DNA of 64,000 nt from Planctomycetota bacterium (GTDB lineage: Bacteria > Planctomycetota > PUPC01 > JACPCR01): NCBI GenBank assembly GCA_016179685.1, contig JACPCR010000061.1:28336-92335 (forward strand), in the 5' to 3' direction. Positions 1 through 48,374 of the stretch are shown one piece after another. Within the stretch, counting starts at the first letter, position 1. Each line of letters begins with the position of its first letter. Made by a program: the position numbers and the translations under genes. Under the pieces are notes generated by a model, which saw only the letters and a list, made by a program, of their open reading frames with translations, was not told the DNA's origin and did not search any database.

Positions 1-146
1 TTCGATCGGATAGGTGGCATCGGGCGGCCATCGGCGCGACCGCTCGACGCGTTCCACATACCGTGCCGCAAGAAGATAGACGCCCAAGGCGCACATCAAG
101 AAGAGAAGATGCTTCATGGACGGGTTGCAGGGTCGAGTTGGCTTCC

Positions 147-1829: not shown

Positions 1830-2028
1830 GCCTAATTTTTCAACGACTGACCCGGAGACGAATCGTTCGTCCCTCCGCGTTTGGATGGGGCTCGAGCAGG
1901 GGCTTCAGCGGGGGGATGTCTTCGAGGGCAGTCCCGTTTAGTGTAATATCTTCTAGGTTGACCAATCCGGTGAGCGGAGTCAGATCGGAAGTTAACATGT
2001 TTTATAATATGGACTTATAATTGATGCT

Positions 2029-2056
2029 TTGACAGCAAACAAATTGATGCTATGAT
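2029..2056 (+). promoter_or_regulatory. sigma70-type promoter (TTGACA-N16-TATGAT) upstream of vapBC
   Basis: -35 hexamer ttgaca at 2029-2034, 16-nt spacer, -10 hexamer tatgat at 2051-2056. It lies inside a conspicuously AT-rich stretch (about 1935-2110) in an otherwise about 68% GC window. Confidence 0.55.
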
Positions 2057-2126
2057 GCCACTTTCTGCTGAATGCCGATTATCCATCAGTCAAACAGAAT
2101 CAAAATTGCTTAACAGGGGAATGGCC

Positions 2127-2393
2127 ATGCGGACAACGATTACCATCGACGACGACTTGTTCGCGACCTTGAAACAGGAAGCTTTCAAGAATCACATGTC
2201 GTTCAAAGAGATAGTTAACAGAAGCCTTCGGTCCGGTCTCAAAGCGACCACCCACCCAGGTCAATCCCGGCGTTATATCTGCAGGACGTTTCCCATGGGG
2301 TATCCACCGCTGGTGAATATTGATCGTGCCCAAGAAATTGCCGACCTGCTCGAGGAAGAAGAAATCGTCCGAAAACTCGAACTGCGAAAATGA
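2127..2393 (+). CDS. vapB: type II antitoxin VapB, ribbon-helix-helix family
   Basis: MRTTITIDDDLFATLKQEAFKNHMSFKEIVNRSL fits the RHH strand-helix-helix pattern. Its stop overlaps the vapC start (ATGA at 2390-2393). Start 2127 was chosen for GGGGA spacing; 2121 is also possible. Confidence 0.75.
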   Translation: MRTTITIDDDLFATLKQEAFKNHMSFKEIVNRSLRSGLKATTHPGQSRRYICRTFPMGYPPLVNIDRAQEIADLLEEEEIVRKLELRK

Positions 2394-2821
2394 AAGTTGT
2401 TGACATCAATCTCTTGCTCTATGCCGTCAATGTTGACGCACCCCACCATGCCAGGGCCCGGGCCTGGTGGGAGGAAACTCTCTCAGGTGAAGAACCCGTT
2501 GGACTAGCGTGGTCGGTTGTGCTGGGTTTTCTGCGGGTCTCAACGAGCGGCCGGGTCATGCCTCACCCTCTCAAGCCCGACCAAGCCCTGGACTTGATGG
2601 AGGAATGGCTGGGGTTGCCTCCTGCAACAATATTGTTGCCGACGGAGCGTCATTGGGAAATTTTCAAGGCTTTGCTTCTGCCCCTGGGCATGGCTGGCAA
2701 CCTCACGTCGGACGCCCATCTAGCTGCCTTGGCGATCGAGCACGGTGCTCGATTATACTCTTCGGACAATGATTTTGGCAGGTTTCCGCACCTCCGCTGG
2801 GTCAATCCGCTTGCTGCTTAA
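2390..2821 (+). CDS. vapC: PIN-domain ribonuclease toxin VapC
   Basis: 143 aa beginning MKVVDINLLLYAV with an early acidic residue, and a C-terminal SDAHLAALAIEHGARLYSSDNDF motif typical of PIN/VapC. Translationally coupled to the upstream antitoxin. Confidence 0.85.
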   Translation: MKVVDINLLLYAVNVDAPHHARARAWWEETLSGEEPVGLAWSVVLGFLRVSTSGRVMPHPLKPDQALDLMEEWLGLPPATILLPTERHWEIFKALLLPLGMAGNLTSDAHLAALAIEHGARLYSSDNDFGRFPHLRWVNPLAA

Positions 2822-2869
2822 TACGGAAACGTTACGCTTCCGCATTGCATAGTCATTCCTTGGCAAGCC

Positions 2870-5315: not shown

Positions 5316-5365
5316 GGGAACACCGGTCCTGGGTTACGAAGATTCCGAAGCGCTCGCGTACGCTT

Positions 5366-5604
5366 AGCCGACGCGTGGTGGCAGGCGGCCACGCCTGCCT
5401 TCCCCTCCGAGGCGCGCACGCGTAGCCGACGCTTCCCAACGGGATGAACTCCGAGGGGGGGCGGACGCACAGCGACCGCGCTACCTGGCCCCCGGCGCGC
5501 TCGTGCGCGCAACGCGTAGGGGGAGCGGACGCACAGCGACCGCGCTACCTGGCCCCCGGCGCGCGTCGTAGCATGCGGCCGCGCCTGCCACCCCCTCCGG
5601 CGCG
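5366..5604. repeat. tandem direct repeats (about 65-bp period) in an intergenic region
   Basis: Exact 40-nt duplication gcggacgcacagcgaccgcgctacctggcccccggcgcgc at 5461-5500 and 5525-5564. It is flanked by degenerate copies of cgcgtag... and ggcggccacgcctgcc motifs. Confidence 0.7.
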
Positions 5605-5741
5605 CTGGCGCACTTCGGCTACGAAATGAAGATTATGCGTGGAGACTCGACTGGCAGGCAAGTCTCATCGGCGCGGGAATCCCGCCGGGGGGGCGCAGCG
5701 GAAAACTTTCACAAGCCAACTGAAGCCCTTCGGCTTTTGCA

Positions 5742-8700
5742 TCATGGCATCAGCTTTTCAGGCCGGTCCGTCTGGCCCTTGCCGTCGTCTCTGTTTCCGG
5801 AATCGGGTCCCAGCTTTCCCGACGACCTCAAGGATTCCAGGTGTGAAGCGGCCTGGCGATCCCGCGCGTTGACTTTCAGAGCGGACTGGTAGCTTTCGGC
5901 CGCGTCGGAGAAACGCCCGAGCTTTTCGTAGATCAGTCCCATCCGCACGCAGGCCGGGCCGATTTCGGCCTGAGCCGCAACCGCAAGCTGTTCGAGCGCC
6001 TCGTCCGGCCGGCCCAGGTTGTCCAGCACCAGCCCGAGATTGAATCGCAGGCGGGGTCGCTCCGACTCCGTTGCCAGGGACACGGCCTTTTCCAGGAGCG
6101 GGAGCGCCTCTTCGAATCGGCCGCGCCGCACCATCAGGACGCCCAGATTCGTATGAGCCTGGGTGGAATTCGGGTCGAGCTTCAGGGCAAGCTCGAAGGC
6201 CTCGATGGCCGATTCCAATTCCGCTTCGCCCGCTGCCCCGCGTTCCGGCTGCCGGGCGACGAGCAGGACCCCGAGGTTGCAGGCCGCTTTGGCGAAGAGG
6301 TCGCTCGGGGACCCCAGGTTCTGAAGCCGGCGTCTCAGCCGCTCGGGGCCGCTCTCCTCCAGGGCCAGGATCGGGGGCAGGAGCGTCAGCAGCTCCTGGA
6401 GTGCCAGACACGCCCGATCGGTCTGTTTCGCCTCGTAGAGCCTGCCCGCGTGGTCATTGAGCAGCTCATACAGAGCCAGTAGAGCCTCCAGGTCACCGGG
6501 ATGAGCGGCCTGGGCCGCCCGCACGCGGTCGAGCGCCTTGTCCACCTTCTCCACCTTGAGCCACATCGCGCTCATGTGGAGATGCCACACGGCCTGGCGT
6601 ACCTGGGCCAAGCGCTTCATTTCCTCCTGGCCCGCGGCCCCCTCGGCCAGAATGGCAGCGACCGGCTTCATCGTCGTCTCGAATTGCAGGACAGGGTCCA
6701 GGTAGCTGCGGTACATCTGCCGCGGCATGTCGAACTCGAGCCGTGCATTGTCGTCCGTGTGGAGAAGCCCCGGGCCCGCCAAGCGCGCCGCGCCTTCGCC
6801 ATCCGTCAGGAAGTGCGCTAGTAGCGTCGCTGCATCGGCGACACCGATCAGCTCGACGTCGGCCTTGACCTGGGGCCGATCGAGCCTTGGACCCAGCTTC
6901 GCCAGGTCCACTCGAAGCGGCTGCTTCGAGCCGATCAGCAGCAAGTCCGCCGAGCTGGCATACCAGATTCCCATTTCCGGAAACACCTGATGAAAGGTGC
7001 GCAGGATCAGGTGGAACGTGGGCAGGTCGAGCTGGTAGGTCTGCAGCCACTGGCACATGATTCCATCGTCGCTGAGCCGCTCCCGGCACTTCTGCCAGAA
7101 TTCCAGGGTGAAAAGGTCGCCCACGCCGGCCATCCACGGGTTCGACGGCTCGGACGTGATGACGTCATAACGGTGATCGGTGAGGAACACGTGATTGCGG
7201 CCGTCGCCGATCAGAAGCCTCGCTGCCGGATGATTCAGGCAGTCCCCGTTGAATTCCCGGAAGAACAGGCTGACCGCTTCGGCGACCTCCGGAGAAATCT
7301 CCACGCAGTCGGCCCGGTCGGGCCCGTGGGTCAGAATGGAACCCAGGGTCATGCCGCTGCCGAGCCCGATGACCAGGACCTCGCGGGGCGACGGGTGCAG
7401 CAGGGCGGGCAGGTGGCCCAGGAGCTTCTGGGTGTTCATGTCGCCCACGGAGGTGGCATCGACCTTCCCGTTCACGGCGAGGTGAAGGACGCCGGGCGAT
7501 GATTCCTTCACCGTCACGGTGCAGGCCGTGCCGTCTCGGCTGTACCGGATGGCGCCGTGCAGCCTGGCCACTTCCTCGACGATCGCCCGCGGATCGCTTT
7601 CTGGCTTGAGCTTCATGACTCCATAGAGGAACGGGGCGCTCGTCATGGAGTGCATGTCCCAGCGCGGGAGGAGGAAGACGCAGAGGGCGGCGAGGCCGAT
7701 GACGGCCGCGGCGCGGTTCACCCGTTTGGCCAGGCCCCAGGTCCGGAAAGACAGGAGCACGATGCTGCACGCGCCGAAATTGAGGGCCGCCCCAAGGATG
7801 AGCGTGTCCTGCACCCCGAGGCCAGGCAGCCAGAGGAATCCCGCGCTCAGGGACCCCAGGATGGCGCCCAGCGTATTGACGCCGTAGACCTCCGCGGTGG
7901 ACCGTCCGAGGCTCTCCAGACGCCGCGTCCAGATGGCCGCCGTCAGGGGAAACATCGCCCCCATCAAGGACGTCGGGATCACCATCAGCCCGAAAAGATA
8001 CAGGAATTCGGTCCACTGCAGCCACCCGAAGGCGTCCCGATACCGCGCTAAGGCGGCCAGCACCCACACCGGGAGACGGCCGATGAGAAACACCATGACG
8101 AGGGTGAAGACTCCAATCCAGGCCTGGGCTGCACCGACCCAGGGGATCAACTCTCTCGTCGGGCGTATCCACGCGGCCAGAATCAGGCTGCCCAGTCCGA
8201 TCCCCAGGATGAAGGCGGTGAGCATCAGGCTGAAGGCGTAGGTGGAGGAGCCGAGGAGCAGGCTGCAGACGCGGGCGAGAGCCACCTCGTCCGCCATGGC
8301 CGCAAAGCCCGAGACGCCGAAGGCGATGAGCGAAGCCCGGGCCTCCCAGGGAGTGAAGACAACCGGCTGCTCCGGGCCCCCTGACGTCACCTCGGAATCC
8401 GCGGCCTCGGTCGCTTGCTCTGCCGGCACCTGCCTCCGGCCCAGGAAAAGAACCGCCACAAGGCCCACGGCCACGTTGACCCCCACGGCGGTCCAGACCG
8501 TGGCCTGGACGCCCAGCTTCGGGATCAGAAAGAATCCTGTCAGAACCGTCCCGGTCACCGCTCCAAAGGTGTTCAAGGCATACACGAGCGCGACGGCCCG
8601 GCCGAAACCCTCCGCTCGACGCACAAACGCCCGGAGGAGAAGCGGGAGGGTGGCCCCCATGAATGTCGTCGGGACCAGCAGGAGCAGCCCGCACGCCAGC

Positions 8701-9056: not shown

Positions 9057-9068
9057 TTACCCCCATCC

Positions 9069-9116
9069 TAGTAGACGCGTTCGCAAGTGCACCCGCACCT
9101 GCGAACACATCTACTA
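9069..9116. repeat. palindromic hairpin element, family copy 1 (12-bp inner stem, accc loop, 7-bp outer stem)
   Basis: tagtaga-cgc-gttcgcaagtgc-accc-gcacttgcgaac-aca-tctacta. Inner and outer arms are perfectly complementary. The apex AAGTGCACCCGCACTT is shared with hairpins at 39317, 45594 and 45809. Confidence 0.7.
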
Positions 9117-9144
9117 TAGGAAACCCCAGCGAAATAGGGAAGCC

Positions 9145-28713: not shown

Positions 28714-29661
28714 ATGAGCCGAACTTTGAAGCTTCCATTACTGCAACCGGAGAGGGACCTGTCGCGCGAGCGCAAGCCGGACTGGCTTCGCGTGCGTTTT
28801 CCGGGCGGCGGGGAGTATCCGCGCCTGGCCAGTCTCTTCACACGCCTCAGGCTGCACACCGTCTGCGAGAGCGCCCATTGTCCGAACATGGGCGAGTGCT
28901 GGGCACACGGCACGGCCACCTTCATGATCCTCGGAAACGTGTGTACCCGAAGTTGTGGCTTCTGCGCTGTTCCGACGGGCAGGCCGCAGGGGCTCGATCT
29001 CGGAGAGCCTGCCCGCGTCGGCGAGGCCGTCGAGAGCCTCCGTCTCGACTACGTGGTCATCACGTCCGTGAATCGCGACGAGCTTCCTGACGGAGGCGCC
29101 AGCCTCTTCGCCGCCACGGTCCGGGAAATTCGACGCCGTTGCTCCCAGACCCGCGTCGAGCTGCTGATTCCCGACTTCATGGGCAACGCGCAGGCGCTCG
29201 CCGAGGTGATCGAAGCTGCGCCGGACGTGCTCAATCACAACCTGGAAACGGTCCCGCGGCTCTACCCCTGGATGCGCCCCCAGGCCAAGTTCACCCGGTC
29301 ACTCGAACTGCTGCGCCGGGCCAAGGCCATGGCCCCTGGCCTGCCGTCCAAGTCCGGATTCATGGTCGGAGCCGGCGAGGCCATGAAGGAGCTCCTCGAT
29401 GCCATGGGACAGGTCGCCGACACCGGCTGCGATATCCTGACCATCGGCCAGTACCTCCGGCCGACGAAGGAACACCATCCGGTCTTCAAGTATTACCACC
29501 CGGACGAATTCGACGAGATCAGGCGGCGGGGACTCGCCATGGGTTTCCGACACGTCGAATCTGGGCCCCTGGTCCGCAGTTCCTACCATGCCTGGGAACA
29601 GGCGAAAGCCATGGAAAATTCAGACCCGCGGATTCCCTGTCCCGGGAGGCCGACGGTCTGA
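28714..29661 (+). CDS. lipA: lipoyl synthase
   Basis: CESAHCPNMGEC, then the radical-SAM CTRSCGFC, and conserved FMVGAGE and SGPLVRSSYHA. Confidence 0.92.
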   Translation: MSRTLKLPLLQPERDLSRERKPDWLRVRFPGGGEYPRLASLFTRLRLHTVCESAHCPNMGECWAHGTATFMILGNVCTRSCGFCAVPTGRPQGLDLGEPARVGEAVESLRLDYVVITSVNRDELPDGGASLFAATVREIRRRCSQTRVELLIPDFMGNAQALAEVIEAAPDVLNHNLETVPRLYPWMRPQAKFTRSLELLRRAKAMAPGLPSKSGFMVGAGEAMKELLDAMGQVADTGCDILTIGQYLRPTKEHHPVFKYYHPDEFDEIRRRGLAMGFRHVESGPLVRSSYHAWEQAKAMENSDPRIPCPGRPTV

Positions 29662-29700
29662 TGCGCAAGCGAGGTCTTTCATGATGCGGGAGGGTTGAAC

Positions 29701-30756
29701 ATGTCGATGGATGGGCTGAATGAACTGGGTGAGCGGATTCTGGCGGGCGGCGAGCCCGCCACGGAAGAAGAGGCCGTTCAAATCCTGGAGGCGGACCCTT
29801 CGGAGGTGTTCGAGCTGGCGGCCTGGGCGAACCGCATTCGCAAGCAATTCAAGGGTGACAAGGTCCACCTCTGTGCCATCATCAACGCCAAGTCGGGAGG
29901 CTGTCCGGAAGACTGCACCTTTTGCGCCCAGTCGGCCCATTACGACACCGGGGTGCAGCGCCACAATTTTCTGGGCCGGGAGGAGGTGCTTCGCGCCGCC
30001 CGCGATGCCCGCATGAGCGGAGCCCAGGCTCTCGGCATCGTCACCGCCTGGCGCGGCCTCAAGGACGGACCCGTGCTCGATGAGGTCTGCCAGCGCATCC
30101 GCGAACTGGCAGAAAGCGGGATAGTGCGGGCCGACGCGTCCCTCGGCATCATCGAGAGTCCGGAGGTGGCCCAACGACTGAAGGACTCGGGCCTGCACTG
30201 TTACAACCACAACTTGGAGACCGCCCGGAGCCACTTTCCCAACATCTGTTCCACGCATACCTTCGACGATCGCATCCGGACCATTCACCATCTCAAAACT
30301 GCCGGCCTAAAGGTCTGTTCCGGTGGGATTTTCGGGATGGGTGAGACGGTCCGGCAGCGCGTCGAATTGGCGCTGGAGCTCCGCCGGCTCGACGTCGACA
30401 TCGTGCCGCTCAACTTCCTGCACCGCATTGTTGGCACGCCCCAGGAGAAGAACGAGCCCTTGCCGCCCCTCGAAATCCTCAAGACCATTGCGATGTTTCG
30501 CTTCGTGCTTCCGCGCAAGGAGATCATGATCGCCGGCGGACGCGAAGTGAATCTCCGGGACCTTCAGAGCCTCATCTTTCATGCGGGCGCCAGCGCCCTC
30601 ATGGTGGGGAACTACCTGACGACCCAGGGCCGCGGCGCCCGCGCCGATCTCCAGATGCTCAAAGACCTGGGACTCGACCCGAAGTGGCCCGGATGGGACC
30701 ACGACGGCGAGGCGGCTCGTGAGGCCGGCGTGGCGCTGGCCGCCACACCGACGTAA
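29701..30756 (+). CDS. bioB: biotin synthase
   Basis: CPEDCTFCAQS radical-SAM motif, NHNLET, and the Cys-containing GLKVCSGGIFGMGE. A GGGAGGG RBS precedes the ATG at 29701. Confidence 0.9.
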   Translation: MSMDGLNELGERILAGGEPATEEEAVQILEADPSEVFELAAWANRIRKQFKGDKVHLCAIINAKSGGCPEDCTFCAQSAHYDTGVQRHNFLGREEVLRAARDARMSGAQALGIVTAWRGLKDGPVLDEVCQRIRELAESGIVRADASLGIIESPEVAQRLKDSGLHCYNHNLETARSHFPNICSTHTFDDRIRTIHHLKTAGLKVCSGGIFGMGETVRQRVELALELRRLDVDIVPLNFLHRIVGTPQEKNEPLPPLEILKTIAMFRFVLPRKEIMIAGGREVNLRDLQSLIFHAGASALMVGNYLTTQGRGARADLQMLKDLGLDPKWPGWDHDGEAAREAGVALAATPT

Positions 30757-30791
30757 GTTCTTCGTTGCTCGAGCACAGAAATCCGCCCACC

Positions 30792-31184
30792 ATGTCCGAT
30801 ACGCCACAACCTGCCAGCGGCAGGAGAATTCTCGTCATCGCCGAGATGTTCTTCGCCTCCAAGCTCAAGGGCGAGGTCCAAAAGGCCGGTTACGAGTACG
30901 TGCCCGCAGCGGCCGAGAAATCGGCCCTCGAGAAGGCGGGGTCCCTCAGGCCCGACGCCATTGTGCTCGATCTCGCCAAGACACGATTCGACGTGCCCGG
31001 CTTCCTCTCGCGCCTGCGAGCCGAACCGGAGCTCTCCGCCATCCCCGTGATCGGCTTCAGCGGCCATCTCGACACCCAGCGGATGCAGGAAGGACAAGAG
31101 AAGGGCTGTACCCTGGTCGTCAGCAACGGCCAAATCACCGGAAATTTTCCCTCGGTCCTTCAGAAGGCGCTCCCGAAAGGTTGA
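30792..31184 (+). CDS. stand-alone response-regulator receiver (CheY-like) domain protein
   Basis: RILVIAEM (acidic pocket), phospho-acceptor-like D in AIVLDL, and a later conserved K. No output domain. Confidence 0.55.
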   Translation: MSDTPQPASGRRILVIAEMFFASKLKGEVQKAGYEYVPAAAEKSALEKAGSLRPDAIVLDLAKTRFDVPGFLSRLRAEPELSAIPVIGFSGHLDTQRMQEGQEKGCTLVVSNGQITGNFPSVLQKALPKG

Positions 31185-31346
31185 TGGAGCGCCAGAATTC
31201 GACCTTCACGATCAACGGTCCGCAGGGAAACCGCCTGGCGAAACGCCGAAAACACCCTCTCCATCACCTCTTCCGGAAACGTGGGGATTGCCTTCCGCCG
31301 GATGAAACGATGCTCTGCGTCGGCAAGGAAGTTTCCATGATCCGGT

Positions 31347-32410
31347 TCACGCATGCTTCGCCCGCAATCGGGATGCGGCCGCACACATGGCCTTCAGTTT
31401 CAGATACGCCTCGTCCAGGTCCATCGGATTCTGCACCGAAGGTGCGAAGCCACAGTCGGGATGAAGAACGATGCGCTCGCGCCCCACATATTTCATCGCC
31501 TCCTCGACGCGCGTGACGATCTCGTCCGGCGTCTCGACTCGGCGTTCACAGTGATCGACACAGCCGAGCCCGAGGCGTGTACCGGGGGGAAAGTGCGCGA
31601 GGGAATGCAAGCCCCCGGCGACCGGGGTGGCGTATTCCATGCAGATCATGCCCACCCGTATCCTGGCCAGTGCCGGCAGGATGAGATCATAGGGGCCCTC
31701 GCTTCCGTGGCGATGGTCGAAGTGCGCGTGGCAGAGGTGCATCGCGGTGTCGATACCGGTCACGCCGTCCAGTGTCTCGTTGACCATGTCGGCACAGAGG
31801 TCCATCTCGTAGTGCGTATCTTCGATGCCCTCTTTTTTCCGGAACTTCGGATCGACCAGGACGCTCAGCCACGGCTCATCGAGCTGGACGGTATCGGCTC
31901 CGGCGTCCTTTACCGCCTCGATCTCGCGCCGGAGAATGGGCACACAGGCCCGCATCAGTTTCTCGCGGGTCGGGTAGGCGGACCGGGAATAGTCCGGATG
32001 CCACATGCGCCGGCCGATGATGTAGGGCGAGGGTAGCGTCGCCTTAACACGGCGGTCCGTACGGCCGCGGACGAAGCGGACCTCCTCCGCGGCGATGGGC
32101 CGGTAGTACTCGAGGGGCGACACGGCCGCGGGATAGGGGATGCCCCCGCTCGGGTTCAAATCCTTCTGGAATCCGCGGACACGCTCTGCAAAAACCTTGA
32201 CGTAGCTCTCACGCCTCCACTCGCCGTCCGTGATCTCATCCAGACCCGCCCGCTCCTGCAAGGCAATCGCCAGCGGAATCGCCTGGTCGAGCCGCTCATC
32301 CGCGTCCCGCTCCGAGATTTTCCCGTCCTTGCGATCCAGGATCAGGTCGCGCAGCCACGCGAGACGCGGCAGGCTGCCAATGACGGTCGTGGGGAAAAGC
32401 ACATCAGACA
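31347..32410 (-). CDS. cobalamin-independent methionine synthase, short single-domain form (MetE C-terminal-domain-like)
   Basis: VIGSLPR N-terminal motif. Zn ligands in HLCHAHF and LHPDCGF. GGAGGAT RBS before the ATG at 32410. The track ORF begins 71 codons further upstream and is likely over-extended. Confidence 0.75.
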
Positions 32411-32775
32411 TTGGGTATCCTCCATGCAGGTGTTCATGCCCCATGGGCATGAGAAATCCTTCGATCCCGACGCCCGCTACGCGACGGCCCCGAGAAACTT
32501 GAATGAGACCACCATGTCCCCCTTTTTTCAACCCCCCGCACGCCAGCGAAAACGGGAAGAGCCGGGAAGCCGCGGCAGGATCCAAGAACCATCTTGAGCC
32601 AATCCTATCAAGATGGAACGGCATCGCTTCGCGATTGACATTCCGAGATTGAGAAGATACACGAGGGGCTACAGGTGTTGCGCCTCCGCAGAATCCCGCT
32701 GGGGGGCTTTTGACTCGTACGCCGGAACGGGAGGCATTGGGGCATCCCGTTCCGGCGTACGAAGGAGTTCATTTC

Positions 32776-33798
32776 ATGAAGCTCGGCCTCGGTCTTTATA
32801 CCAGCATGTTCACGGACGACAACCTCCGTTTCGCCCGTCAGCTCGGGGTGACTCATCTCGTCGCGCATCTGCCGTTCCCTCCGGGCGACGGCGTGTGGGA
32901 ATTCCTCGATATGCTTCGGCTGAAGAAGTACGCCAATTCCTTCGGTCTGGAGCTGGAGGCCTTCGAGAATTTCCATCCCGCCCATTGGCACAAAATCCTG
33001 CTGGACCTGCCCGGCAAGGAGGTCCAGATGGAAAACCTGAAAACGACGATCCGGAACATGGGCAGGGCTGGCATTCCGGTCATGGGCTACTATTTCAGCC
33101 TTGCCGGGGTCTGGGGCCACTGGCGGGCCGGCAACAACAACACGGGCGGCCGCGGAGGCGCCGGCATCAAGAGCTTCGATTACGACCTCGTCCGTGACGC
33201 TCCCTTCATCCGTCTGGGCGAGGTCTGGGGCGGCTGGAAGGTCGATGAGCATGCCACGCCCGGCACCCTCGGCGAAGTCTCCCAGGAAGTCCTCTGGGAG
33301 CGCTTCCGCTACTTTCTGGAAAACCTCGTTCCCGCCGCCGAGGAGTCTGGCGTCAGACTGGCGGCGCACCCGGACGACCCGCCCGTTCCGGTGCTGCGCG
33401 GCGTCGGCCGACTCCTCACCAGCCATGAAGGTTACAAGAGGCTGATCGAGATGAAACCGAGCCCATCGAATGCGCTCGAGTTCTGCCAGGGCACGGTCGC
33501 GGAGATGGGGCAGGACATCTACGAGGCCATCCGCTACTTCGGCTCGAGGGGAAAAATCGCCTACGTCCATTTCCGAAACGTCCGCGGGGATTTTCCGAAC
33601 CGGTTCGACGAGGTCTTTATCGACGAGGGCGACGTGGATATGGTCCGGGCGATGCGGGCCTACCAGGAGGTGGGATACGATGGGGTGTTGATCCCGGACC
33701 ACACGCCGCACGTCACCTGTCCGGCGTCCTGGCACGCCGGGATGGCCTATGCGCTCGGCTACATGCGGGCCTGCTTGCAGCACCTGGGGGCCGCGTGA
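32776..33798 (+). CDS. uxuA: D-mannonate dehydratase (UxuA family), paralog 1
   Basis: AAHPDDPPVPVLRG, GDVDMV and VLIPDHTPHV match UxuA signature regions. GAAGGAG RBS before the ATG at 32776. Confidence 0.85.
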   Translation: MKLGLGLYTSMFTDDNLRFARQLGVTHLVAHLPFPPGDGVWEFLDMLRLKKYANSFGLELEAFENFHPAHWHKILLDLPGKEVQMENLKTTIRNMGRAGIPVMGYYFSLAGVWGHWRAGNNNTGGRGGAGIKSFDYDLVRDAPFIRLGEVWGGWKVDEHATPGTLGEVSQEVLWERFRYFLENLVPAAEESGVRLAAHPDDPPVPVLRGVGRLLTSHEGYKRLIEMKPSPSNALEFCQGTVAEMGQDIYEAIRYFGSRGKIAYVHFRNVRGDFPNRFDEVFIDEGDVDMVRAMRAYQEVGYDGVLIPDHTPHVTCPASWHAGMAYALGYMRACLQHLGAA

Positions 33799-33845
33799 GG
33801 ACACTCGCCCCATCCCATTTCCGGGACCTCTAAGAGGCAGCAGCC

Positions 33846-34199
33846 ATGGGACTCACTTATATCGAAGGAGTGGTGGCCGGGCCCACCGGAAGACGAAGGA
33901 CGTTGGAATTCCTTGTTGACAGTGGCGCCATGTACTCTTTATTGCCCCACAAGGATTGGAAATCGATCCGGTTGGCTCCCAAACGGTCCATGGTCTTCAC
34001 CTTGGCTGACGGCACGAAAATAGAGCGCCGAATCTCGGAATGTCATATGGCTCTGCCACAAGGGGAAGGCCACACCCCTGTTATTCTTGGCGAACCCGGC
34101 GATGAGGCTCTTCTCGGAGTGGTCACGCTGGAAAACTTGGGCCTTGTCTTGAATCCTTTTAATCGGACCCTACAACCCATGCGCATGCTGCTGGTATAG
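33846..34199 (+). CDS. small retropepsin-like (clan AA) aspartic protease domain protein
   Basis: 117 aa with hydrophobic-hydrophobic-D-S-G-A (FLVDSGAMYS) and the C-terminal GxxxL pattern of the retropepsin fold. Inserted between two uxuA paralogs. Confidence 0.6.
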   Translation: MGLTYIEGVVAGPTGRRRTLEFLVDSGAMYSLLPHKDWKSIRLAPKRSMVFTLADGTKIERRISECHMALPQGEGHTPVILGEPGDEALLGVVTLENLGLVLNPFNRTLQPMRMLLV

Positions 34200-34327
34200 C
34201 CCGTATCCCTGTTCAGAAGCGCGGGTGCACTTCTGAACAGGGATACGAGGGAAGATGCGGCGCGGGTCCGCCCGGGGCACCCGGACTTGCAGCCTCTGAA
34301 TTTCCATCCCGTCGAAGGAGTTTACCC

Positions 34328-35350
34328 ATGAAACTGGGACTCGGCCTCTACCCGAGCATTCTGACGGACGACAACCTCAAGTTCGCCCGCCAGCTCAGCG
34401 TGACTCACATCGTCGCCTGGATGCCCCTTCCCGTGGGCAACGGCGTCTGGGAGTTCGCTGACCTGCTCCGTCTGAAGAAGTACATCAACTCTTTCGGGCT
34501 GGAGCTGGACGCCCTCGAGAATTTCCAACCTGCCCACTGGGACAAGATTCTCCTGGACCGACCCGGCAAGGAGGCGCAGATGGAGAACCTGAAGGCGACC
34601 ATCCGCAACCTGGGCAAGGTCGGCATTCCCATCATGGGTTACTATTTCAGCCTCGCGGGGGTGTGGGGGCACTGGCGGTCCGGCAGCAACAACTCGGCCG
34701 GCCGCGGCGGAGCAGGCCTGACCAGTTTCGATTACGACTTGGTGAAGGATGCTCCACTGATTCCCAAAGGCGAGGCCTGGTGCGGCTGGAAGGTGGAGGC
34801 GGACCCTGAGCCGGGCACGATCGGCGAAGTGGCCCACGCGGAGATGTGGGAGCGCCTCCGCTACTTTCTGGAGAGCCTCGTTCCCGTCGCCGAGGAGGCC
34901 GGCGTACGGCTCGCGGCGCACCCGGACGACCCGCCCGTGCCGGTGCTGCGCGGCACCGCGCGTCTTTTGACGTGCCATGAGAACTACAGGCGTCTGATCG
35001 AGATGAAGCCGAGCCCGTCGAACGCGCTCGAGTTCTGCCAGGGAACCGTCGCGGAGATGGGGCAAGACACCTACGAGGCCATCCGCTACTTCGGCTCAAG
35101 AAAGAAAATCGCTTACGTCCACTTCCGCAACGTCCGCGGGGACTTCCCGAACCGGTTCGACGAGGTCTTCATCGACGAGGGCGACGTGGACATGGTCCTG
35201 GCGATGCGGGCCTATCTGGAGGTGGGATACGATGGGGTGCTGATCCCGGACCATTCGCCGCACGTGACCTGTCAGTCGCCCTGGCACGCCGGGATGGCCT
35301 ACGCCCTCGGCTACATGCGGGCCTGCATGCAGTTCCTGGGCGTGAAATGA
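34328..35350 (+). CDS. uxuA: D-mannonate dehydratase (UxuA family), paralog 2
   Basis: About 80% amino-acid identity to 32776-33798 with the same RBS. The C-terminal 150 codons are nearly identical at nucleotide level. Confidence 0.85.
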   Translation: MKLGLGLYPSILTDDNLKFARQLSVTHIVAWMPLPVGNGVWEFADLLRLKKYINSFGLELDALENFQPAHWDKILLDRPGKEAQMENLKATIRNLGKVGIPIMGYYFSLAGVWGHWRSGSNNSAGRGGAGLTSFDYDLVKDAPLIPKGEAWCGWKVEADPEPGTIGEVAHAEMWERLRYFLESLVPVAEEAGVRLAAHPDDPPVPVLRGTARLLTCHENYRRLIEMKPSPSNALEFCQGTVAEMGQDTYEAIRYFGSRKKIAYVHFRNVRGDFPNRFDEVFIDEGDVDMVLAMRAYLEVGYDGVLIPDHSPHVTCQSPWHAGMAYALGYMRACMQFLGVK

Positions 35351-35360
35351 GCGCGCGGTC

Positions 35361-36533
35361 ATGAAAATCTCAGACGTTCGATGTCACCTGATGAGCGTGC
35401 CCAGGCCCGACGGGCCCGGCGCCTGCCGCAACTGGCTCTTCGTCGAGGTGGAAACGGATGCTGGCCTGACGGGGCTCGGCGAGGCCACAACGGAATACCA
35501 CGAGCTGGCCGTGAAGGCCCAGATCGAAGCCGAGCTGCGGCCGAGGCTGCTCGGGATGAATCCGGCAGAGATCGAACGCATCTGGCAGATGGGATACCGT
35601 GAATTCTGGTGGCGGCGCGGGGTCGTCCATACCAGCGCCTTCAGCGGCGTGGACATGGCGTTATGGGACATTGCTGGCAAGGCGGCGGGCCTGCCCGTTT
35701 TCCAGCTCCTGGGCGGCAAGGTTCGTGAAACGGTCCGCCTCTATATCCGATACGGACCCGAATTCTACGGCGTTGACCGCGACACCGCGGCACACCGATG
35801 CCGCGCCATGGGCTTTGATGCCTTCAAACACGGCTGGGGCACGCCCACCCGGCCCTACGACGGCGACCGGCAGGTCGAAGTCTCTATCGCCGAGAACGCC
35901 CGCTTTCGCGAGCTGCTCGGGCCGGAGGTGGCCCTGATGGTGGACGCCGCTGGAATGTTCTCGCCGCAGCAGGCCCACCGCCTCCTCGAGCAGCTCCGCC
36001 CCCTCCGGCCGCTATTCGTCGAGGAACCCACCGCCCAGGACACGGTCGAGCCAACGCTCCGGCTCAAGCGCTCGTTTCCCGACGTCCTGCTGGCGCTCGG
36101 GGAGCGGATGATGACGCGGTGGGATTTCCGCCCCTGGTTCGAGCCGCAGGCCATCGACGTCTGCCAGGCCGACATTTGCCATACCGGCGGGATCAGCGAA
36201 TTGGTGAAAATCGCACATTTCGCCGAGATCTATGGAATCCAGATGGCGCCCCATAATCCTTATGGCCCCGTGGCGCTCGCCGCCTGCGCACACGCCTGTG
36301 CCGCCATGCAGAACTTCCTCATCCTGGAATACTGCCCGATCCAGCCCTGGTTCGACCAGGTGCAGGCCCTGAAGGTCCCGGTCCACCAAGGCCGCGTGGA
36401 TATGAACGAACTGGGGCGGCGGCCCGGACTCGGCGTGGAGCTGGACCGGGAGATCGTCGCCTCCCGCGCCGGCTGCATCCGTCTGGCGTGGAATCGGGCC
36501 ACGACGGCGGACGGTTCCACGCCGTTGCTTTAG
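35361..36533 (+). CDS. enolase-superfamily sugar-acid dehydratase (mandelate racemase/muconate lactonizing enzyme fold; ManD/galactonate dehydratase-like)
   Basis: N-terminal capping domain with LFVEVETDAGLTGLGE. Barrel metal ligands in MVDAAG, VEEP and a later D/E. HNPYGP-like C-terminus. Confidence 0.75.
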   Translation: MKISDVRCHLMSVPRPDGPGACRNWLFVEVETDAGLTGLGEATTEYHELAVKAQIEAELRPRLLGMNPAEIERIWQMGYREFWWRRGVVHTSAFSGVDMALWDIAGKAAGLPVFQLLGGKVRETVRLYIRYGPEFYGVDRDTAAHRCRAMGFDAFKHGWGTPTRPYDGDRQVEVSIAENARFRELLGPEVALMVDAAGMFSPQQAHRLLEQLRPLRPLFVEEPTAQDTVEPTLRLKRSFPDVLLALGERMMTRWDFRPWFEPQAIDVCQADICHTGGISELVKIAHFAEIYGIQMAPHNPYGPVALAACAHACAAMQNFLILEYCPIQPWFDQVQALKVPVHQGRVDMNELGRRPGLGVELDREIVASRAGCIRLAWNRATTADGSTPLL

Positions 36534-36570
36534 CATATGCGTACGGCAATGCACCCTTACTTCTGTACGC

Positions 36571-37443
36571 GTGCACGAGTTGAATCGAGATGGCTCTTGG
36601 AGAAGACATGAGGCATCGCCGGTTGCGTTTCGGCCTGGTCGGAGCAGGCGATTTCGGACCCGAGCTGGCGCGATACCTGGCGGAAGTCGCCGATGTGGTC
36701 GCGGTGGCCGATCCAAGCCCCGAGGCACGGTCGAAATCTTCGCCCGGACCGAGGGCCGTTGCCTGGGCCAGGCCGTGGACGCGGAGGGCAGCCTCCACGC
36801 CGCGCATGTGCCGGGCAACGTGCTGCGGATCACACCTCGGGGCGACATCCACACCTATGCGACCGGCCCCGGCGGCCGAAAATTCCTCTGTGCGAATTAC
36901 CCGGCCTTCGACCGCAAGGGATGGATGTATCTTTCGGACAGCGGCGACTGGTCCGACACGATCAACGGGGCCATTTACAAAATCCCGCCCGGCGGTGGCG
37001 AAGCCAGGCCATGGTTTCCGGAGGCCGTAAACACGCCGAACGCCATCGCGCTGGACGCGGACGAGAAATACCTCTATTACGTAGAGACCTATGGTCCCGG
37101 CATCTGCCGCATCGAGGTCCGGCCCGATGGGGCGGCGGGCCGCCACGAGCGAGTCGTTCACATGCCCGGCTGGGTTCCCGACGGCATCGCCTGGGACACC
37201 GAGGAGCGCCTCTGGATCGCCTGCCACCGGCCTGACGCCATTTATGTGTTCGACTTGCGAAGCCGCAAGCTGGACCTCTTCGCCCACGACTGGAGGGGAG
37301 AGGCGCTGCGGGGGCCAACGGACGTGGCCTTCGCTGGGGCCGAACGGAACATCCTGCTCGCCTCCTCGCTGGACAACCTCGTGATCCACCGGTTCGGCGA
37401 CGTGGGTGCCCGCGGGCTGCCCCTCAACCATCCCAAGTGGTGA
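36571..37443 (+). CDS. SMP-30/gluconolactonase/LRE-like beta-propeller hydrolase with anomalous Arg-rich N-terminus
   Basis: From VEIFARTEG onward (about 36730) there are clear lactonase-type blades (YLSDSG, YYVETYG, DGIAWD, NLVIHRF). The first about 53 codons of the ORF read the alternate frame of the Gfo/Idh/MocA remnant and look non-native. Confidence 0.55.
   Translation: MHELNRDGSWRRHEASPVAFRPGRSRRFRTRAGAIPGGSRRCGRGGRSKPRGTVEIFARTEGRCLGQAVDAEGSLHAAHVPGNVLRITPRGDIHTYATGPGGRKFLCANYPAFDRKGWMYLSDSGDWSDTINGAIYKIPPGGGEARPWFPEAVNTPNAIALDADEKYLYYVETYGPGICRIEVRPDGAAGRHERVVHMPGWVPDGIAWDTEERLWIACHRPDAIYVFDLRSRKLDLFAHDWRGEALRGPTDVAFAGAERNILLASSLDNLVIHRFGDVGARGLPLNHPKW
36590..36735 (+). pseudogene. 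N-terminal remnant of a Gfo/Idh/MocA-family oxidoreductase (Rossmann GxGxxG) out of frame with the downstream SMP-30 domain
   Basis: RLRFGLVGAGDFGPELARYLAEVADVVAVADPSPEA in frame 2 is the canonical Gfo/Idh/MocA N-terminus. After about 45 codons, protein-like sequence switches to frame 1. Confidence 0.35.
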
Positions 37444-37536
37444 GCCCCAACCCGATGGCCTACTGAGAATCAGGTCTGCACGGCTCTGCCGGGCACTCGC
37501 TTCCCACCGGGAATGAAGCCGCGGTAAAATAACCCC

Positions 37537-38511
37537 ATGCGCCAACAGCCATACAGCTTCGGCTTTGCCGACACCCTCCTGGCAGAGGTCGGCGGGGTCT
37601 CGCTCGGCGCCCTCCATCACGACGTGGACGCCATCTGCCGGAGCTACGACGCCATTCGGACCGTGGCTGACCGCATGGGAGTGCCGGCGCCTCGGCCGAG
37701 GCTGGCCGGCTTTGCCTATCCCCATGTTTCCACCCTGGGTGCGCGGATCGCCTGGGTGGCCGATTCCGAGCCGAAGCCTTTGCCGGTCATCCGCACGCCC
37801 GAGGATATCGACCGGCTGGCCGAGCCGGAGGATTATCTGAACAGCGGCGTCGTGCCGGAACGGCTGCACACCTTGGAACGGCTGTTGGGACGGCGTCCGG
37901 ACGCGGGCAGAGGGATCGGCCACACCTATGAAGGCCCCGTGACGACCGCCGTATTGCTCATGGGACCGGCCTTTTTCACGCTTCCTTACGACGACCCGAT
38001 TCGAGCGCATCAGCTTCTGGGCTTCTGTGTTCGAAGCGCTTTGAACTATGCGCGAGCGATCCGAGAGCATTTTGGCGGCGGAGATGAGCCCCGGCCGGTG
38101 GGCATACCCGACGATTTCGCCGGGATTTTCAGCCCGGCGCTGTTTGCCGATTTTGTTGTGCCCTACTGGAATCAGATGTACGAGGGACAGCGAGCCACGA
38201 AACGTTACTTGCACAGTGAGTTGCTTCGAAGCGAGCACCTGGCGTTCCTGTCGGGCCTCAAGATTGACCTGTTCGACCCCTCAGCGGACCAATACGTGAC
38301 AGCGGAACTCCTCCGGCATTCTTGCCCCGTGCCGTTCACCTCGCGGATTCTGACCTATCACGTTCGGCATCGGACGCCGGAGGAATTGCAGGCCCTATAC
38401 CGGCATCTGGCCGGATTCGATCCCGTGTCGATCGATTTCCATCAGTGGACGCTGGAGGAAGAGCCAAAGATGCTGGCGCTCCTCGAGGTGGCCCGTCAAT
38501 TGGACCGGTAA
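37537..38511 (+). CDS. hypothetical protein, uroporphyrinogen-decarboxylase-like (URO-D/MtaA-type TIM barrel) fold suspected
   Basis: 324 aa with ordinary composition and weak resemblance to URO-D family spacing. No firm motif. Confidence 0.4.
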   Translation: MRQQPYSFGFADTLLAEVGGVSLGALHHDVDAICRSYDAIRTVADRMGVPAPRPRLAGFAYPHVSTLGARIAWVADSEPKPLPVIRTPEDIDRLAEPEDYLNSGVVPERLHTLERLLGRRPDAGRGIGHTYEGPVTTAVLLMGPAFFTLPYDDPIRAHQLLGFCVRSALNYARAIREHFGGGDEPRPVGIPDDFAGIFSPALFADFVVPYWNQMYEGQRATKRYLHSELLRSEHLAFLSGLKIDLFDPSADQYVTAELLRHSCPVPFTSRILTYHVRHRTPEELQALYRHLAGFDPVSIDFHQWTLEEEPKMLALLEVARQLDR

Positions 38512-38622
38512 TCGCGGGGCACCCTTTCCGGTGTATGGAATACCGCACCGTTCAGGACCATGCGGGAATTGGCAAAGTTCCGATAGAGGGACCGTTCATC
38601 AGACTTGTGAGGCGCGATCAGC

Positions 38623-39363
38623 ATGACGACCAGGGCCAGAAGAAGACCTTCCTTCGGTTCTCCGGATTTGAGGCTGCCCGACGATCTGCGGGGGCCCCTC
38701 TTGCAGCATCTCGCGGACCTCCGGCAGCGTTACCTTCAGCGCGGCTGGGGCGGCAGCACCGGTTTCGGCCAGAGGCCGGCCCTCCTGGTGATCGACCTCG
38801 CGCTGTTCTGGACGGATGCCCAGCAGCAGATCGGCAGCTCGCTCGACTCCGTGCTGCACGCCGCCCGCCGCGTGCTCCGTGCCGCTCGAAAAGCGAAGAT
38901 TCCCGTCTTCTTCTCGACGTACGACTACGATCCGGCTGAGCCGCCGAGCCCGCATTCAAGGAAGCTGAAACTCGCTCTGAAGCCGGGCGATCAGGACTTG
39001 TTCAAGCTGGACCCCCGGCTGAAGCATCGGCCCGGAGAGAAGGTCATCCGGAAGAAGTACGCCTCATGCTTCAAGGGCACCAATTTTCACGAGATGCTGG
39101 CGGCCCTGGGCGTGGACACGCTGATCGTGACGGGGATCAGCACCAGCCACTGCGTGTACGCGACGTGCCGGGACGCCACGGACAGCTTTCACGTCATCGT
39201 GCCGCGGGAGGCGGTCGGCGAGCGCTGCGAGCTCATGCACGAAGTGTTTCTGCACGACATCGGAATGGACCTGGCCGACGTTTTGCCCGCGGAGGAAGTC
39301 ATCGCTTACCTGGCTCGTAGACGTGTAGGGAAGTGCACCCGCACTTCCTTACACGCCTACTAA
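38623..39363 (+). CDS. isochorismatase-family cysteine hydrolase
   Basis: ALLVIDL (Asp), K in KKYASCFKGT, and Cys in VTGISTSHCV form the isochorismatase catalytic triad pattern. The 3' end overlaps the convergent gene's stop and encodes a hairpin. Confidence 0.75.
   Translation: MTTRARRRPSFGSPDLRLPDDLRGPLLQHLADLRQRYLQRGWGGSTGFGQRPALLVIDLALFWTDAQQQIGSSLDSVLHAARRVLRAARKAKIPVFFSTYDYDPAEPPSPHSRKLKLALKPGDQDLFKLDPRLKHRPGEKVIRKKYASCFKGTNFHEMLAALGVDTLIVTGISTSHCVYATCRDATDSFHVIVPREAVGERCELMHEVFLHDIGMDLADVLPAEEVIAYLARRRVGKCTRTSLHAY
39317..39360. repeat. palindromic hairpin element, family copy 2, embedded in the 3' end of the isochorismatase CDS at a convergent gene junction
   Basis: gtag-a-cgtgtagggaagtgc-accc-gcacttccttacacg-c-ctac. 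One G:T wobble position. Same apex as 9069, 45594 and 45809. Confidence 0.65.
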
Positions 39364-45593: not shown

Positions 45594-45639
45594 AGCAGAC
45601 GAGTTAGCAAGTGCACCCGCACTTGCTAACTCGTCTGCT
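45594..45639. repeat. palindromic hairpin element, family copy 3 (perfect 21-bp stem, accc loop, followed by TTTT)
   Basis: agcagacgagttagcaagtgc-accc-gcacttgctaactcgtctgct, then tttgg. Relative to copy 1 the stem carries a compensatory C:G to A:T change (ttCgc/gcGaa versus ttAgc/gcTaa). Confidence 0.75.
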
Positions 45640-45771: not shown

Positions 45772-45808
45772 CCTCCCATCTGAATCCCTGCTGGAGGGGT
45801 TTCCGGCT

Positions 45809-45854
45809 AGCACACGTGTAAGGAAGTGCCCCCGCAATTCCTTACACGTGTGCT
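45809..45854. repeat. palindromic hairpin element, family copy 4 (perfect 17-bp stem, 12-nt loop gtgcccccgcaa)
   Basis: agcacacgtgtaaggaa / ttccttacacgtgtgct arms. The stem sequence is related to copy 2 (cgtgtaRggaagtgc). Confidence 0.7.
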
Positions 45855-46320
45855 ATGTAGAAGGAATGATCTCCCATGTCGTTACTATAATGAGAAGCCT
45901 CAGTCGGTCAACTCCATCGGATGCACCCGTATTGCCCCAGGGATGCGGGGCCGGGGGGCGTTGCCGCTGATGTGCGGCGGTTACACAGTCCAACCATTCA
46001 CAGACTTGACGCGACAGCGCTCAGCGAGAGACCGAAGACTCCCCATCCACCGTCACACGAATGCGCTCAAGCACATTTCTGCTAAAATGCCGACCATATA
46101 TTTCCATGCCTGAGGTCTGCCACGAATGACCCACGGTGTTCGCTGTGTCCATGTGACAGGCCATGTGCGGGGTGTATGGAGGTCAAGTCTGTTTGGGCTT
46201 TCGCTGTTCAGCATCACGGTAACTTTCTGTAAAGCAAGAGTTTAAAGCTCACACCATAACTGCTCGATGAGTTCGGGTAAGACGATCGGGTCAAAGCTAA
46301 GAGTTACGAACGGAGAACCC

Positions 46321-48011: not shown

Positions 48012-48374
48012 ATGGGAAGGACTCCTGTTACCGTGATAGTTTGTAATCCGGCCCAGCTTGACCGAACGTGGGAAGGGCTTTTTCTCGTGGATACTGACGC
48101 CGTGGATTGCTGGGTAGCCGGCGAATATTTGCGGGGTATCGGTATCGAGCCCCGCGGAAAACGTTTCTATGAATGGGCTGATGGCTCGGAGGTCAAGTTC
48201 GATATCGCGACGGGGGAGACCAAATTTATGGGCGATATGGTGGGAACGACCGTCATTTTCGTCTCCGATGACGCCGAACCCATTCTGGGTGTCACGGCAT
48301 TGGAGTCCGCAGGTATTGAAGTGAATCCGCGCAGCCAGCGAATGAAGCGCCTGCCGGCGCCGCGTCTAAAATAG
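48012..48374 (+). CDS. small retropepsin-like (clan AA) protein, paralog of 33846-34199 with D-T-D in place of D-S-G
   Basis: Alignable to the first copy (LFLVDTDAVD versus FLVDSGAMYS; GVTALESAGIEVNP versus GVVTLENLGLVLNP). 120 aa. Confidence 0.55.
   Translation: MGRTPVTVIVCNPAQLDRTWEGLFLVDTDAVDCWVAGEYLRGIGIEPRGKRFYEWADGSEVKFDIATGETKFMGDMVGTTVIFVSDDAEPILGVTALESAGIEVNPRSQRMKRLPAPRLK

Follow-up and report, generated by a model that had tools for sequence, protein, structure and literature searches.

A tandem pair of UxuA-like genes in a Planctomycetota genome, with a likely old gene-conversion tract and a retropepsin-like gene in the spacer

Structures of UxuA, the mannonate dehydratase, have been solved for Streptococcus suis (3BAN/3DBN/3FVM), Enterococcus faecalis (1TZ9) and Escherichia coli (4EAC). 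For the concerted evolution of bacterial paralogs by gene conversion, tufA and tufB of Salmonella are the textbook case. Here, a stretch of 64,000 nucleotides (nt) from a Planctomycetota bacterium (assembly GCA_016179685.1, contig JACPCR010000061.1, positions 28,336 to 92,335), referred to as the window, was analysed. It carries two UxuA-like genes in tandem, copy 1 and copy 2, and the spacer between them holds a small open reading frame (ORF) of the retropepsin-like type. The arrangement is most probably an old tandem duplicate whose 3' third was homogenised by gene conversion in the past, and whose spacer later received a foreign small gene and a palindrome. The probability of this reading as a whole was estimated as roughly 0.6. 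The locus represents ordinary genome evolution and no new system.

As in the tuf genes, one part of the two paralogs appears to be more similar than the age of the pair would lead one to expect, and the phylogenetic signal shifts along the gene. In contrast to tufA/tufB, the conversion would be partial, confined to the 3' third, and old (synonymous divergence, dS, about 0.4 in that part), and the copies have diverged by about 19%. The likeness to the solved UxuA enzymes consists of a near-full-length Pfam match, aligned motifs and a surrounding gene cluster of the sugar-acid type. The three structures have 367-414 amino acids, whereas the copies are shorter (340 amino acids), and here they are paired with an enolase-superfamily dehydratase, for which the best match, galactonate dehydratase, lies below cutoff too. 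The coordinates of all features are collected in Table 1.

Table 1. Features of the tandem locus and of the palindrome family, in positions of the window
Feature	Position	Strand	Remarks
Palindromic hairpin before copy 1	32715-32762	+	21-bp arms; ends 14 nt 5' of the ATG; possible sixth family member
Leader/ribosome-binding motif of copy 1, CGAAGGAGTT	32760-32769	+	10-mer identical in copy 2 leader
UxuA-family TIM-barrel gene, copy 1	32776-33798	+	340 amino acids; Pfam PF03786, 194.1 bits
3' third of copy 1, codons 226-340	33451-33798	+	putative old gene-conversion tract; copy 2 partner 35003-35350
Retropepsin-like (clan AA) ORF	33846-34199	+	117 amino acids; D-S-G-A at residues 25-28; PF13650, 26.0 bits
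REP/REPIN-like hairpin after the small ORF (family copy)	34202-34247	-	21-nt arms, 4-nt loop; 3 nt past the ORF stop; apex motif; centre about 34225
Leader/ribosome-binding motif of copy 2, CGAAGGAGTT	34313-34322	+	10-mer identical in copy 1 leader
UxuA-family TIM-barrel gene, copy 2	34328-35350	+	340 amino acids; Pfam PF03786, 195.7 bits
Enolase-superfamily (MR_MLE) acid-sugar dehydratase-like gene	35361-36533	+	starts 10 nt past copy 2
Family copy of the palindrome	9068-9117	+	apex motif; centre about 9092
Family copy of the palindrome	39315-39362	+	apex motif; centre about 39338
Family copy of the palindrome	45594-45639	+	apex motif; centre about 45616
Family copy of the palindrome	45808-45855	+	apex motif; centre about 45831

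Each of the two genes consists of 1023 nt (340 codons and the stop), and they can be aligned in register with zero gaps. The products agree at 272 of the 341 codons (79.8%), and the nucleotide identity is 81.1%, with values of 86%, 90% and 67% at codon positions 1, 2 and 3, respectively. A previous inspection of this DNA from its letters only (the sequence-only reading) had described tandem UxuA paralogs with about 80% amino acid identity, a description that holds. It had also stated that the last 450 nt or so are about 90% identical. The 3' end is indeed more alike than the 5' end, but the identity of the last 450 nt is 86.2% (77.1% for the first 573 nt), and values of 88-92% in windows of 90 nt were reached only in the last 350 nt or so. 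The longest identical run in register is 27 nt.

The upstream regions of the copies are homologous up to about position -35, as CATCCCGT...CGAAGGAGTT, where copy 2 shows a gap of 9 nt. Past this point no homology above shuffled controls was found, and none was found 3' of the two stop codons. As the sequence-only reading had noticed, the same ribosome-binding motif precedes each copy; its distance to the ATG differs by 1 nt between them. The copy 2 leader also holds a remnant of the 3' arm of the hairpin that stands before copy 1. The spacer measures 529 bp (33799-34327) and contains one intact ORF, namely the 117-codon retropepsin-like frame that had been recognised previously. A 14-nt string of the copy 2 leader, GAATTTCCATCCCG (34298-34311), is also present inside copy 1 (32967-32980, the codons for E-N-F-H-P), and the homologous site in copy 2 differs. 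About 0.02 chance matches were estimated for this 3.2-kb region; the string may have been left behind by a rearrangement, or it may be due to chance.

Both products match PF03786 at profile positions 13-326 of 352, far above the cutoff of 23.7 bits, and more weakly the Pfam family of xylose-isomerase-like TIM barrels. The curated NCBIfam models for mannonate dehydratase gave scores below their cutoffs: 117.2 and 120.2 bits against 199.55 for TIGR00695, and 143.5 and 150.7 against 191 for NF003027. For this reason the genes are named UxuA-like, or members of the UxuA family, and D-mannonate dehydratase activity is regarded as putative. The UxuA structures cited above were the sole sequence matches of the copies in the PDB (E values from 7e-36 to 1e-23). 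The motifs HPDDPP, C-x-G, (V/M)H-x-RNV and PDH align with those of 3BAN and 1TZ9. Residues HPDDPP (198-203), C237, H265/R267/N268 and D308/H309 show no variation among the two copies and 14 homologs, and both copies retain all invariant columns of this 16-sequence family alignment. Both enzymes are probably functional. A PADLOC scan of copy 1 gave no match.

Homologs were searched among 5.8 billion proteins, and a second search was made with copy 2 as query. One close relative was found beyond the pair, a protein of 341 amino acids (P0003) from another metagenome, where its gene is single-copy and stands in an unrelated context (locus L007). The search with copy 2 gave no further close relatives, and the remaining homologs reach at most 66-68% identity, depending on the alignment. 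The subfamily, of about 340 amino acids, is scattered across many phyla at 50-66% identity, and its members are labelled in the sources as mannonate dehydratase or merely as TIM barrel protein. No recent tandem pair was present among the best 80 GTDB loci with the closest homologs. In the same 80 loci neither a retropepsin-like gene nearby nor a conserved downstream MR_MLE gene was found, and synteny was thus uninformative. In many Chloroflexota, Poribacteria and Latescibacterota the closest homolog lies beside or near a distant paralog of the UxuA family with 30-40% identity (loci L022-L098; in tandem, for instance, in L057, L066, L073 and L083, and divergently in L045-L052). Multi-copy UxuA-like clusters are thus recurrent, yet those pairs are ancient.

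The divergence of the copies was determined with the method of Nei and Gojobori (NG86). Over the whole gene the nonsynonymous and synonymous values (dN/dS) were 0.124/0.651, which indicates purifying selection on the copies. By segment, codons 1-225 gave a dS of 0.79 and codons 226-342 one of 0.42; together with the short longest identical run, these values indicate that the pair is not recent. The relationship to P0003 changes along the gene. In neighbour-joining trees of codons 1-225, copy 2 grouped with P0003 in 96% of the bootstraps, whereas codons 226-340 grouped copy 1 with copy 2 in 90.5%. Derived residues, polarised with 40 outgroups, showed the same pattern. Copy 1 and copy 2 have one of them in common in the 5' part and six in the 3' part, and copy 2 and P0003 have eight in the 5' part and one in the 3' part. 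The switch of site patterns was significant at p of about 0.02 in a permutation test that allowed any breakpoint. In addition, the identity of synonymous codons between the copies, taken over a codon-usage baseline, rises from 5' to 3' (0.15, 0.23, 0.29, 0.45 and 0.52). In the comparison with the L007 gene the corresponding values are close to zero, save for 0.13-0.15 at the 3' end.

The protein divergence is asymmetric. In codons 1-225, copy 1 has 32 unique residue changes, whereas copy 2 and P0003 have 11 and 10, respectively. Copy 1 has thus undergone about three times more protein change than copy 2 in the 5' part, and it has kept the invariant residues. A test for islands of divergence found no association between synonymous and amino acid differences, and hence no sign of patchy conversion opposed by selection.

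The best reading of these data is that gene conversion homogenised the 3' third after the copies had diverged, and that the event would itself be old. The earlier proposal of a recent duplication or ongoing conversion is thus retained in part. A past conversion of the 3' part is suggested by the incongruent trees and site patterns, but a recent origin disagrees with the dS of the pair. Ongoing conversion is not supported: the longest identical run is short, no chimeric variants are present among the homologs found, and the six contigs from other assemblies match the window (see below). The copies, about 19% diverged, are no longer kept alike. Given the requirements of RecA-type homologous recombination, the copies would now be too diverged for efficient exchange. 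The repeats, which had been proposed as substrates for deletion or amplification, are therefore probably poor ones today, and no deletion variants were found among the homologs either.

Several points weigh against a conversion event. The synonymous heterogeneity along the pair is marginal when taken alone (permutation p = 0.07 for the maximum chi-square). Both comparisons with the outgroup gene show a weaker fall in synonymous differences toward the 3' end, so that the effect is partly a regional one. The C-terminal half is the better conserved one in every homolog, and the likeness of the 3' ends is thus due in part to constraint. For the 5' part, the protein sites suggest a duplication before the split from P0003, whereas the synonymous sites put the copies closer to each other (dS 0.79) than to P0003 (about 1.9, saturated). 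The eight sites common to copy 2 and P0003 amount to 25% of the unique changes of copy 1 (8/32), and the equivalent class to 27% of those of copy 2 (3/11), which makes long-branch homoplasy possible. Finally, the comparison involves one close outgroup only, with saturated synonymous sites, and the trees are of the neighbour-joining type on short segments rather than maximum likelihood.

An alternative is a single duplication younger than the P0003 split and without any conversion. The 3' likeness would then reflect stronger purifying selection and codon bias in the catalytic C-terminal region, and the 5' divergence a fast-evolving copy 1. Besides the general conservation of the C-terminal half, the marginal p value and the similar trend in the outgroups, this explanation gains from the synonymous divergence of the copies, which is below that to the outgroup across the whole gene, and from the homoplasy fraction on copy 1, which is not raised. 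It accounts poorly for the position of the derived residues common to the copies, since six of the seven sit in the last third, for the topology switch (96% and 90% bootstrap, corrected p about 0.02) and for the synonymous identity over baseline, which increases more than threefold from 5' to 3'. A history free of conversion is consequently considered rather unlikely.

Independent acquisition of the two copies from different foreign lineages, which would make them chance neighbours, was largely refuted and is very improbable. The copies could have been nearer to foreign lineages than to each other, and for copy 2 this is so at the protein level: it is 85% identical to P0003, which belongs to another organism and context, and 80% to copy 1. 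The spread of the subfamily over many phyla would also be compatible with such an origin. The synonymous sites give the opposite picture, as dS is 0.65 between the copies and about 1.85, saturated, between them and P0003. Moreover, 97% of the bootstraps unite the two copies and P0003 in one clade, the copies have about 35 nt of leader in common, including the identical 10-mer, and the GC content at third codon positions (GC3) is host-like in both (0.83 and 0.86).

The small ORF in the spacer belongs, with reasonable but unproven support, to the retropepsin-like proteins. Its score for PF13650 exceeds the cutoff (24.3 bits), whereas those for PF13975 (26.8 against 28.2) and TIGR03698 (37.8 against 57.35) do not. 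Residues 22-28 read FLVDSGA, and no variation at D25, G27 or A28 was seen across 31 homologs; in total, 44 columns are invariant in the 31 sequences. The AlphaFold2 model was of low confidence (mean pLDDT 56.5, with the C-terminal 30 residues below 50). The top 50 PDB matches of this low-confidence model were HIV-1 protease throughout, with E values of about 1e-3 and TM-scores of 0.40-0.56. A sequence search of the PDB gave nothing meaningful for the ORF, and PADLOC and PHROGs scans gave no matches. The ORF is preceded by its own AAGAGG motif.

Described stand-alone bacterial retropepsin-like proteases (TIGR03698 'clan_AA_DTGF', PF13650/PF13975) of clan AA resemble this protein in the single domain of retropepsin size, the D-S-G-A motif and a C-terminal hydrophobic-hydrophobic-Gly stretch. 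Rickettsia APRc is reported to be linked to the cell surface (PMC4140852), the Rlo proteins of P. aeruginosa to be secreted (PMC12239564) and Pseudomonas RimB to be part of the RimABK ribosome-modification complex (PMC11957791). Compared with these surface, complex-bound or secreted proteins, the 117-amino-acid protein is a bare domain without a conserved partner gene. No experimental study of its subfamily was found in the literature.

With a GC3 of 0.60, where 17 other genes in the window have 0.81 +/- 0.03, the ORF is foreign or at least atypical; its non-coding flanks are native-like (64-65% GC). The search gave 4907 matches. Among the top 120, almost every protein has a length of precisely 117 amino acids, and the identities are 73-82%. 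Their source labels include Poribacteria, Chloroflexia, Anaerolineae, Acidobacteriota and a groundwater metagenome. Within this family the nucleotide identity is 68-73% and the synonymous sites are saturated; along with the conserved protein, this indicates very strong constraint and not a very recent transfer. The wider family comprises 1659 clusters at 50% clustering with E values up to 0.001, or 462 with E values up to 1e-10.

The homologs examined were P0122-P0240 and the loci L008, L014, L100, L103, L104 and L106. Across seven different contexts it is found on its own, in the same direction as the upstream gene and among unrelated neighbours. These were uxuA-like genes; an unknown gene and a radical SAM gene; subtilase and dap genes; HepT and polysaccharide-synthesis genes; glutamate dehydrogenase and D-Ala-D-Ala ligase; and an array of small genes of the toxin-antitoxin type. 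Members are often found near toxin-antitoxin modules (HicAB, MNT/HepT, ParE, UPF0175). No flanking DNA common to the sites in other contigs was detected, and in 80 other genomes no homolog of the small gene adjoins a uxuA homolog. An integron cassette (attC) formed by the small ORF and the hairpin behind it was considered and discarded, as the flanks of the homologs lack common DNA or a hairpin and the hairpin belongs to a repeat family of the genome.

Two further loci touch on this family. A second retropepsin-like ORF of 120 amino acids is present in the window (48012-48374, forward strand), 28% identical to the first (tblastn E value 2e-8). It has the motif LVDTDA instead of D-[ST]-G-A and no Pfam match, and it stands alone between two genes of the same strand; its GC3 is as atypical as that of the first (0.60, with 0.81 in the other genes). 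In L014 (JGI 3300031278 contig, positions 1-6400), about 16 small ORFs of the same strand lie upstream of the 117-amino-acid homolog, with more beyond it. The array has several domains of the toxin-antitoxin type and looks like a cassette or toxin-antitoxin island. Upstream of the homolog, a retropepsin-like ORF of 130 amino acids overlaps a preceding ORF of 79 amino acids in the manner of a two-gene module.

It is conceivable, if doubtful, that the 117-amino-acid protein is a self-spreading, context-independent single-gene element, or a stand-alone protease of the toxin or defence type. This idea draws on the 73-82% identity across distant phyla with saturated synonymous sites, on the lack of a partner, on the co-directional position in unrelated operons, on the recurrent toxin-antitoxin neighbours and on the atypical codon composition of both members in the window.

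The hairpins of the locus have their nearest described counterparts in repetitive extragenic palindromic (REP) sequences and REPINs. REPINs have been studied mainly in Proteobacteria. The palindromes resemble these elements (Bertels and Rainey 2011, PMC3116915; Nunvar et al. 2010, PMC2817692) in being short, repeated and extragenic, in the concerted change of the arms and in the GTAG-like head of some copies. They differ in number, with five or six copies, all within one 64-kb window, and also in the 4-nt loop, in the apex, AAGTGC-NCCC-GCACTT, as the conserved part and in the GTAG head, which is present in only two of six. The apex motif of the family, AAGTGC-[A/C]CCC-GC..TT, occurs five times in the window, against an expectation of 0.11. 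All copies form hairpins of 21-22 bp and are located between genes or at gene ends.

The hairpin behind the small ORF is strongly folded (-39.2 kcal/mol, z = -9.2), and the region 32700-32790, which includes the hairpin before copy 1, gave -51.9 kcal/mol (z = -7.2). The latter hairpin has the arm length and the CGTA head of the family and a different apex; it aligns with the other copies and keeps the pairing. When the six hairpins were aligned, 94% of the stem cells were paired and 15 of 22 pairs had changed on both sides, a result matched by none of 500 shuffles. The heads are GTAG in two copies and GTAT, GTAC, GCAG and GCAC in the others. The palindromes thus appear to form a REP/REPIN-like family, of which the hairpin before copy 1 is possibly a sixth member. 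An Rfam scan of 31000-37000 (E values up to 1) gave three matches at chance level, none of them at either hairpin or the leader.

A causal role of the retropepsin-like gene, or of an element carrying it, in the duplication, for instance as a mobile cassette that copied the flanking gene on insertion or repair, is considered highly improbable. It would fit the location of this compositionally foreign gene exactly at the junction of the copies, next to a repeat-family hairpin and with a related hairpin before copy 1. On the other hand, the spacer holds no transposase, recombinase, terminal inverted repeats or target-site duplication. The homologs elsewhere have no flanking DNA in common, and in the places examined they stand alone among unrelated genes, never between duplicates. 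Nor was any REP-like element found 3' of copy 2, where a REP-to-REP unequal crossover would have left one, and such a simple crossover thus does not explain the duplication. The sequence-only reading had left open whether the insertion mediated or followed the duplication. Mediation agrees badly with a protease-like fold, the missing recombinase and homologs that stand alone, whereas a later arrival is plausible by composition. As nothing points to an ability of the ORF to move DNA, its arrival after the duplication is likelier than its having caused it, and a later horizontal insertion is the likely origin.

An assembly artefact, with one gene assembled twice, is a general risk of metagenome-assembled genomes, and several short contigs do break inside the spacer, but this explanation is refuted for practical purposes, because the copies differ at 19% of their nucleotides, which no collapsed or duplicated assembly can produce, no identical run exceeds 27 nt, which is shorter than the usual k-mers, and independent assemblies reproduce the arrangement. 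Logan assemblies of five separate sequencing runs were 100% identical to the window over the lengths of their contigs. One contig of 17.4 kb from a single run (L001) spans both copies together with the small ORF, and those of the other four runs cover part of the spacer and copy 2. The parent contig of the window, 101 kb long, is assigned by its source labels to a Planctomycetota metagenome-assembled genome. The arrangement is real, and the possibility of an assembly duplication, raised earlier, falls away.

A sixth contig (L005; NCBI GCA_016184355.1, JACPCY010000364.1), 1.8 kb long and with copy 2, is binned in an 'Armatimonadetes' metagenome-assembled genome. It is 99.8% identical to the window, save for the first 45 nt, which have no match there. 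Mis-binning and a contig-end artefact are the likely explanation. The mis-binning would account for the conflicting taxon labels of protein P0002, and the 5' end of the contig was dropped as a candidate structural variant.

In the proposed history, a UxuA-family gene with about 35 nt of its leader would have been duplicated in tandem long ago, and both copies would have been kept intact under purifying selection. Copy 1 would then have gained about three times the amino acid changes of copy 2 in the 5' two-thirds, which may reflect a shift in specificity or in partner interactions of its N-terminal part. The 3' third, which holds the most conserved motifs of the family, was probably homogenised later by the conversion, itself old. 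Separately, the foreign 117-codon gene, which appears to be promoter-less, and the REP/REPIN-like palindrome would have come into the spacer.

As for the operation of the locus, one transcript may run from upstream of position 32715 through copy 1 and the small ORF, which would probably be co-transcribed. The hairpin at 34202-34247 would probably serve as an mRNA-end, stability or partial termination element ahead of copy 2 and the rest of the cluster, and so might set the ratio of copy 1 to copy 2 and the downstream genes. In enteric operons, REP elements stabilise or partly end transcript segments and thereby set gene ratios. A scan of 32300-35500 for sigma-70 promoters and intrinsic terminators showed nothing at the expected places. 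A U-tract is absent after either hairpin, so that a terminator role is a guess; this point, too, counts against the proposed operation.

Around the pair, the gene content would suggest a cluster of the sugar-acid catabolic type with the copies at its front. The MR_MLE gene behind copy 2, the dehydratase partner mentioned above, has its start called 30 nt later in other assemblies. It is followed on the same strand by SGL (SMP-30/gluconolactonase-like) lactonase-like, URO-D/MtaA-like and isochorismatase-like genes. A divergent MetE-like (Meth_synt_2) gene lies directly upstream of copy 1, and two radical SAM genes of the same strand (LIAS_N-type and BATS-type) are found upstream of the copies within 28714-32411. 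Taken together with the downstream genes (35361-39363), this upstream region makes an unusual gene mix.

For the UxuA family, the pair offers a clean, datable case of an enzyme gene duplicated in tandem, in a poorly studied phylum; its copies have diverged unequally at the protein level and carry a probable conversion tract that is partial and now extinct. It also calls for caution with the label mannonate dehydratase on the subfamily of about 340 amino acids, which curated equivalog models do not back. As a by-product, a REP/REPIN-like palindrome family was encountered in a Planctomycetota genome. The stand-alone retropepsin-like family, very conserved and uncharacterised, is a cheap candidate for toxicity and proteolysis tests. 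If its members were indeed self-spreading elements or stand-alone toxin- or defence-type proteases, the arrival of one between the uxuA copies would be a single case of a general, undescribed colonisation of operons.

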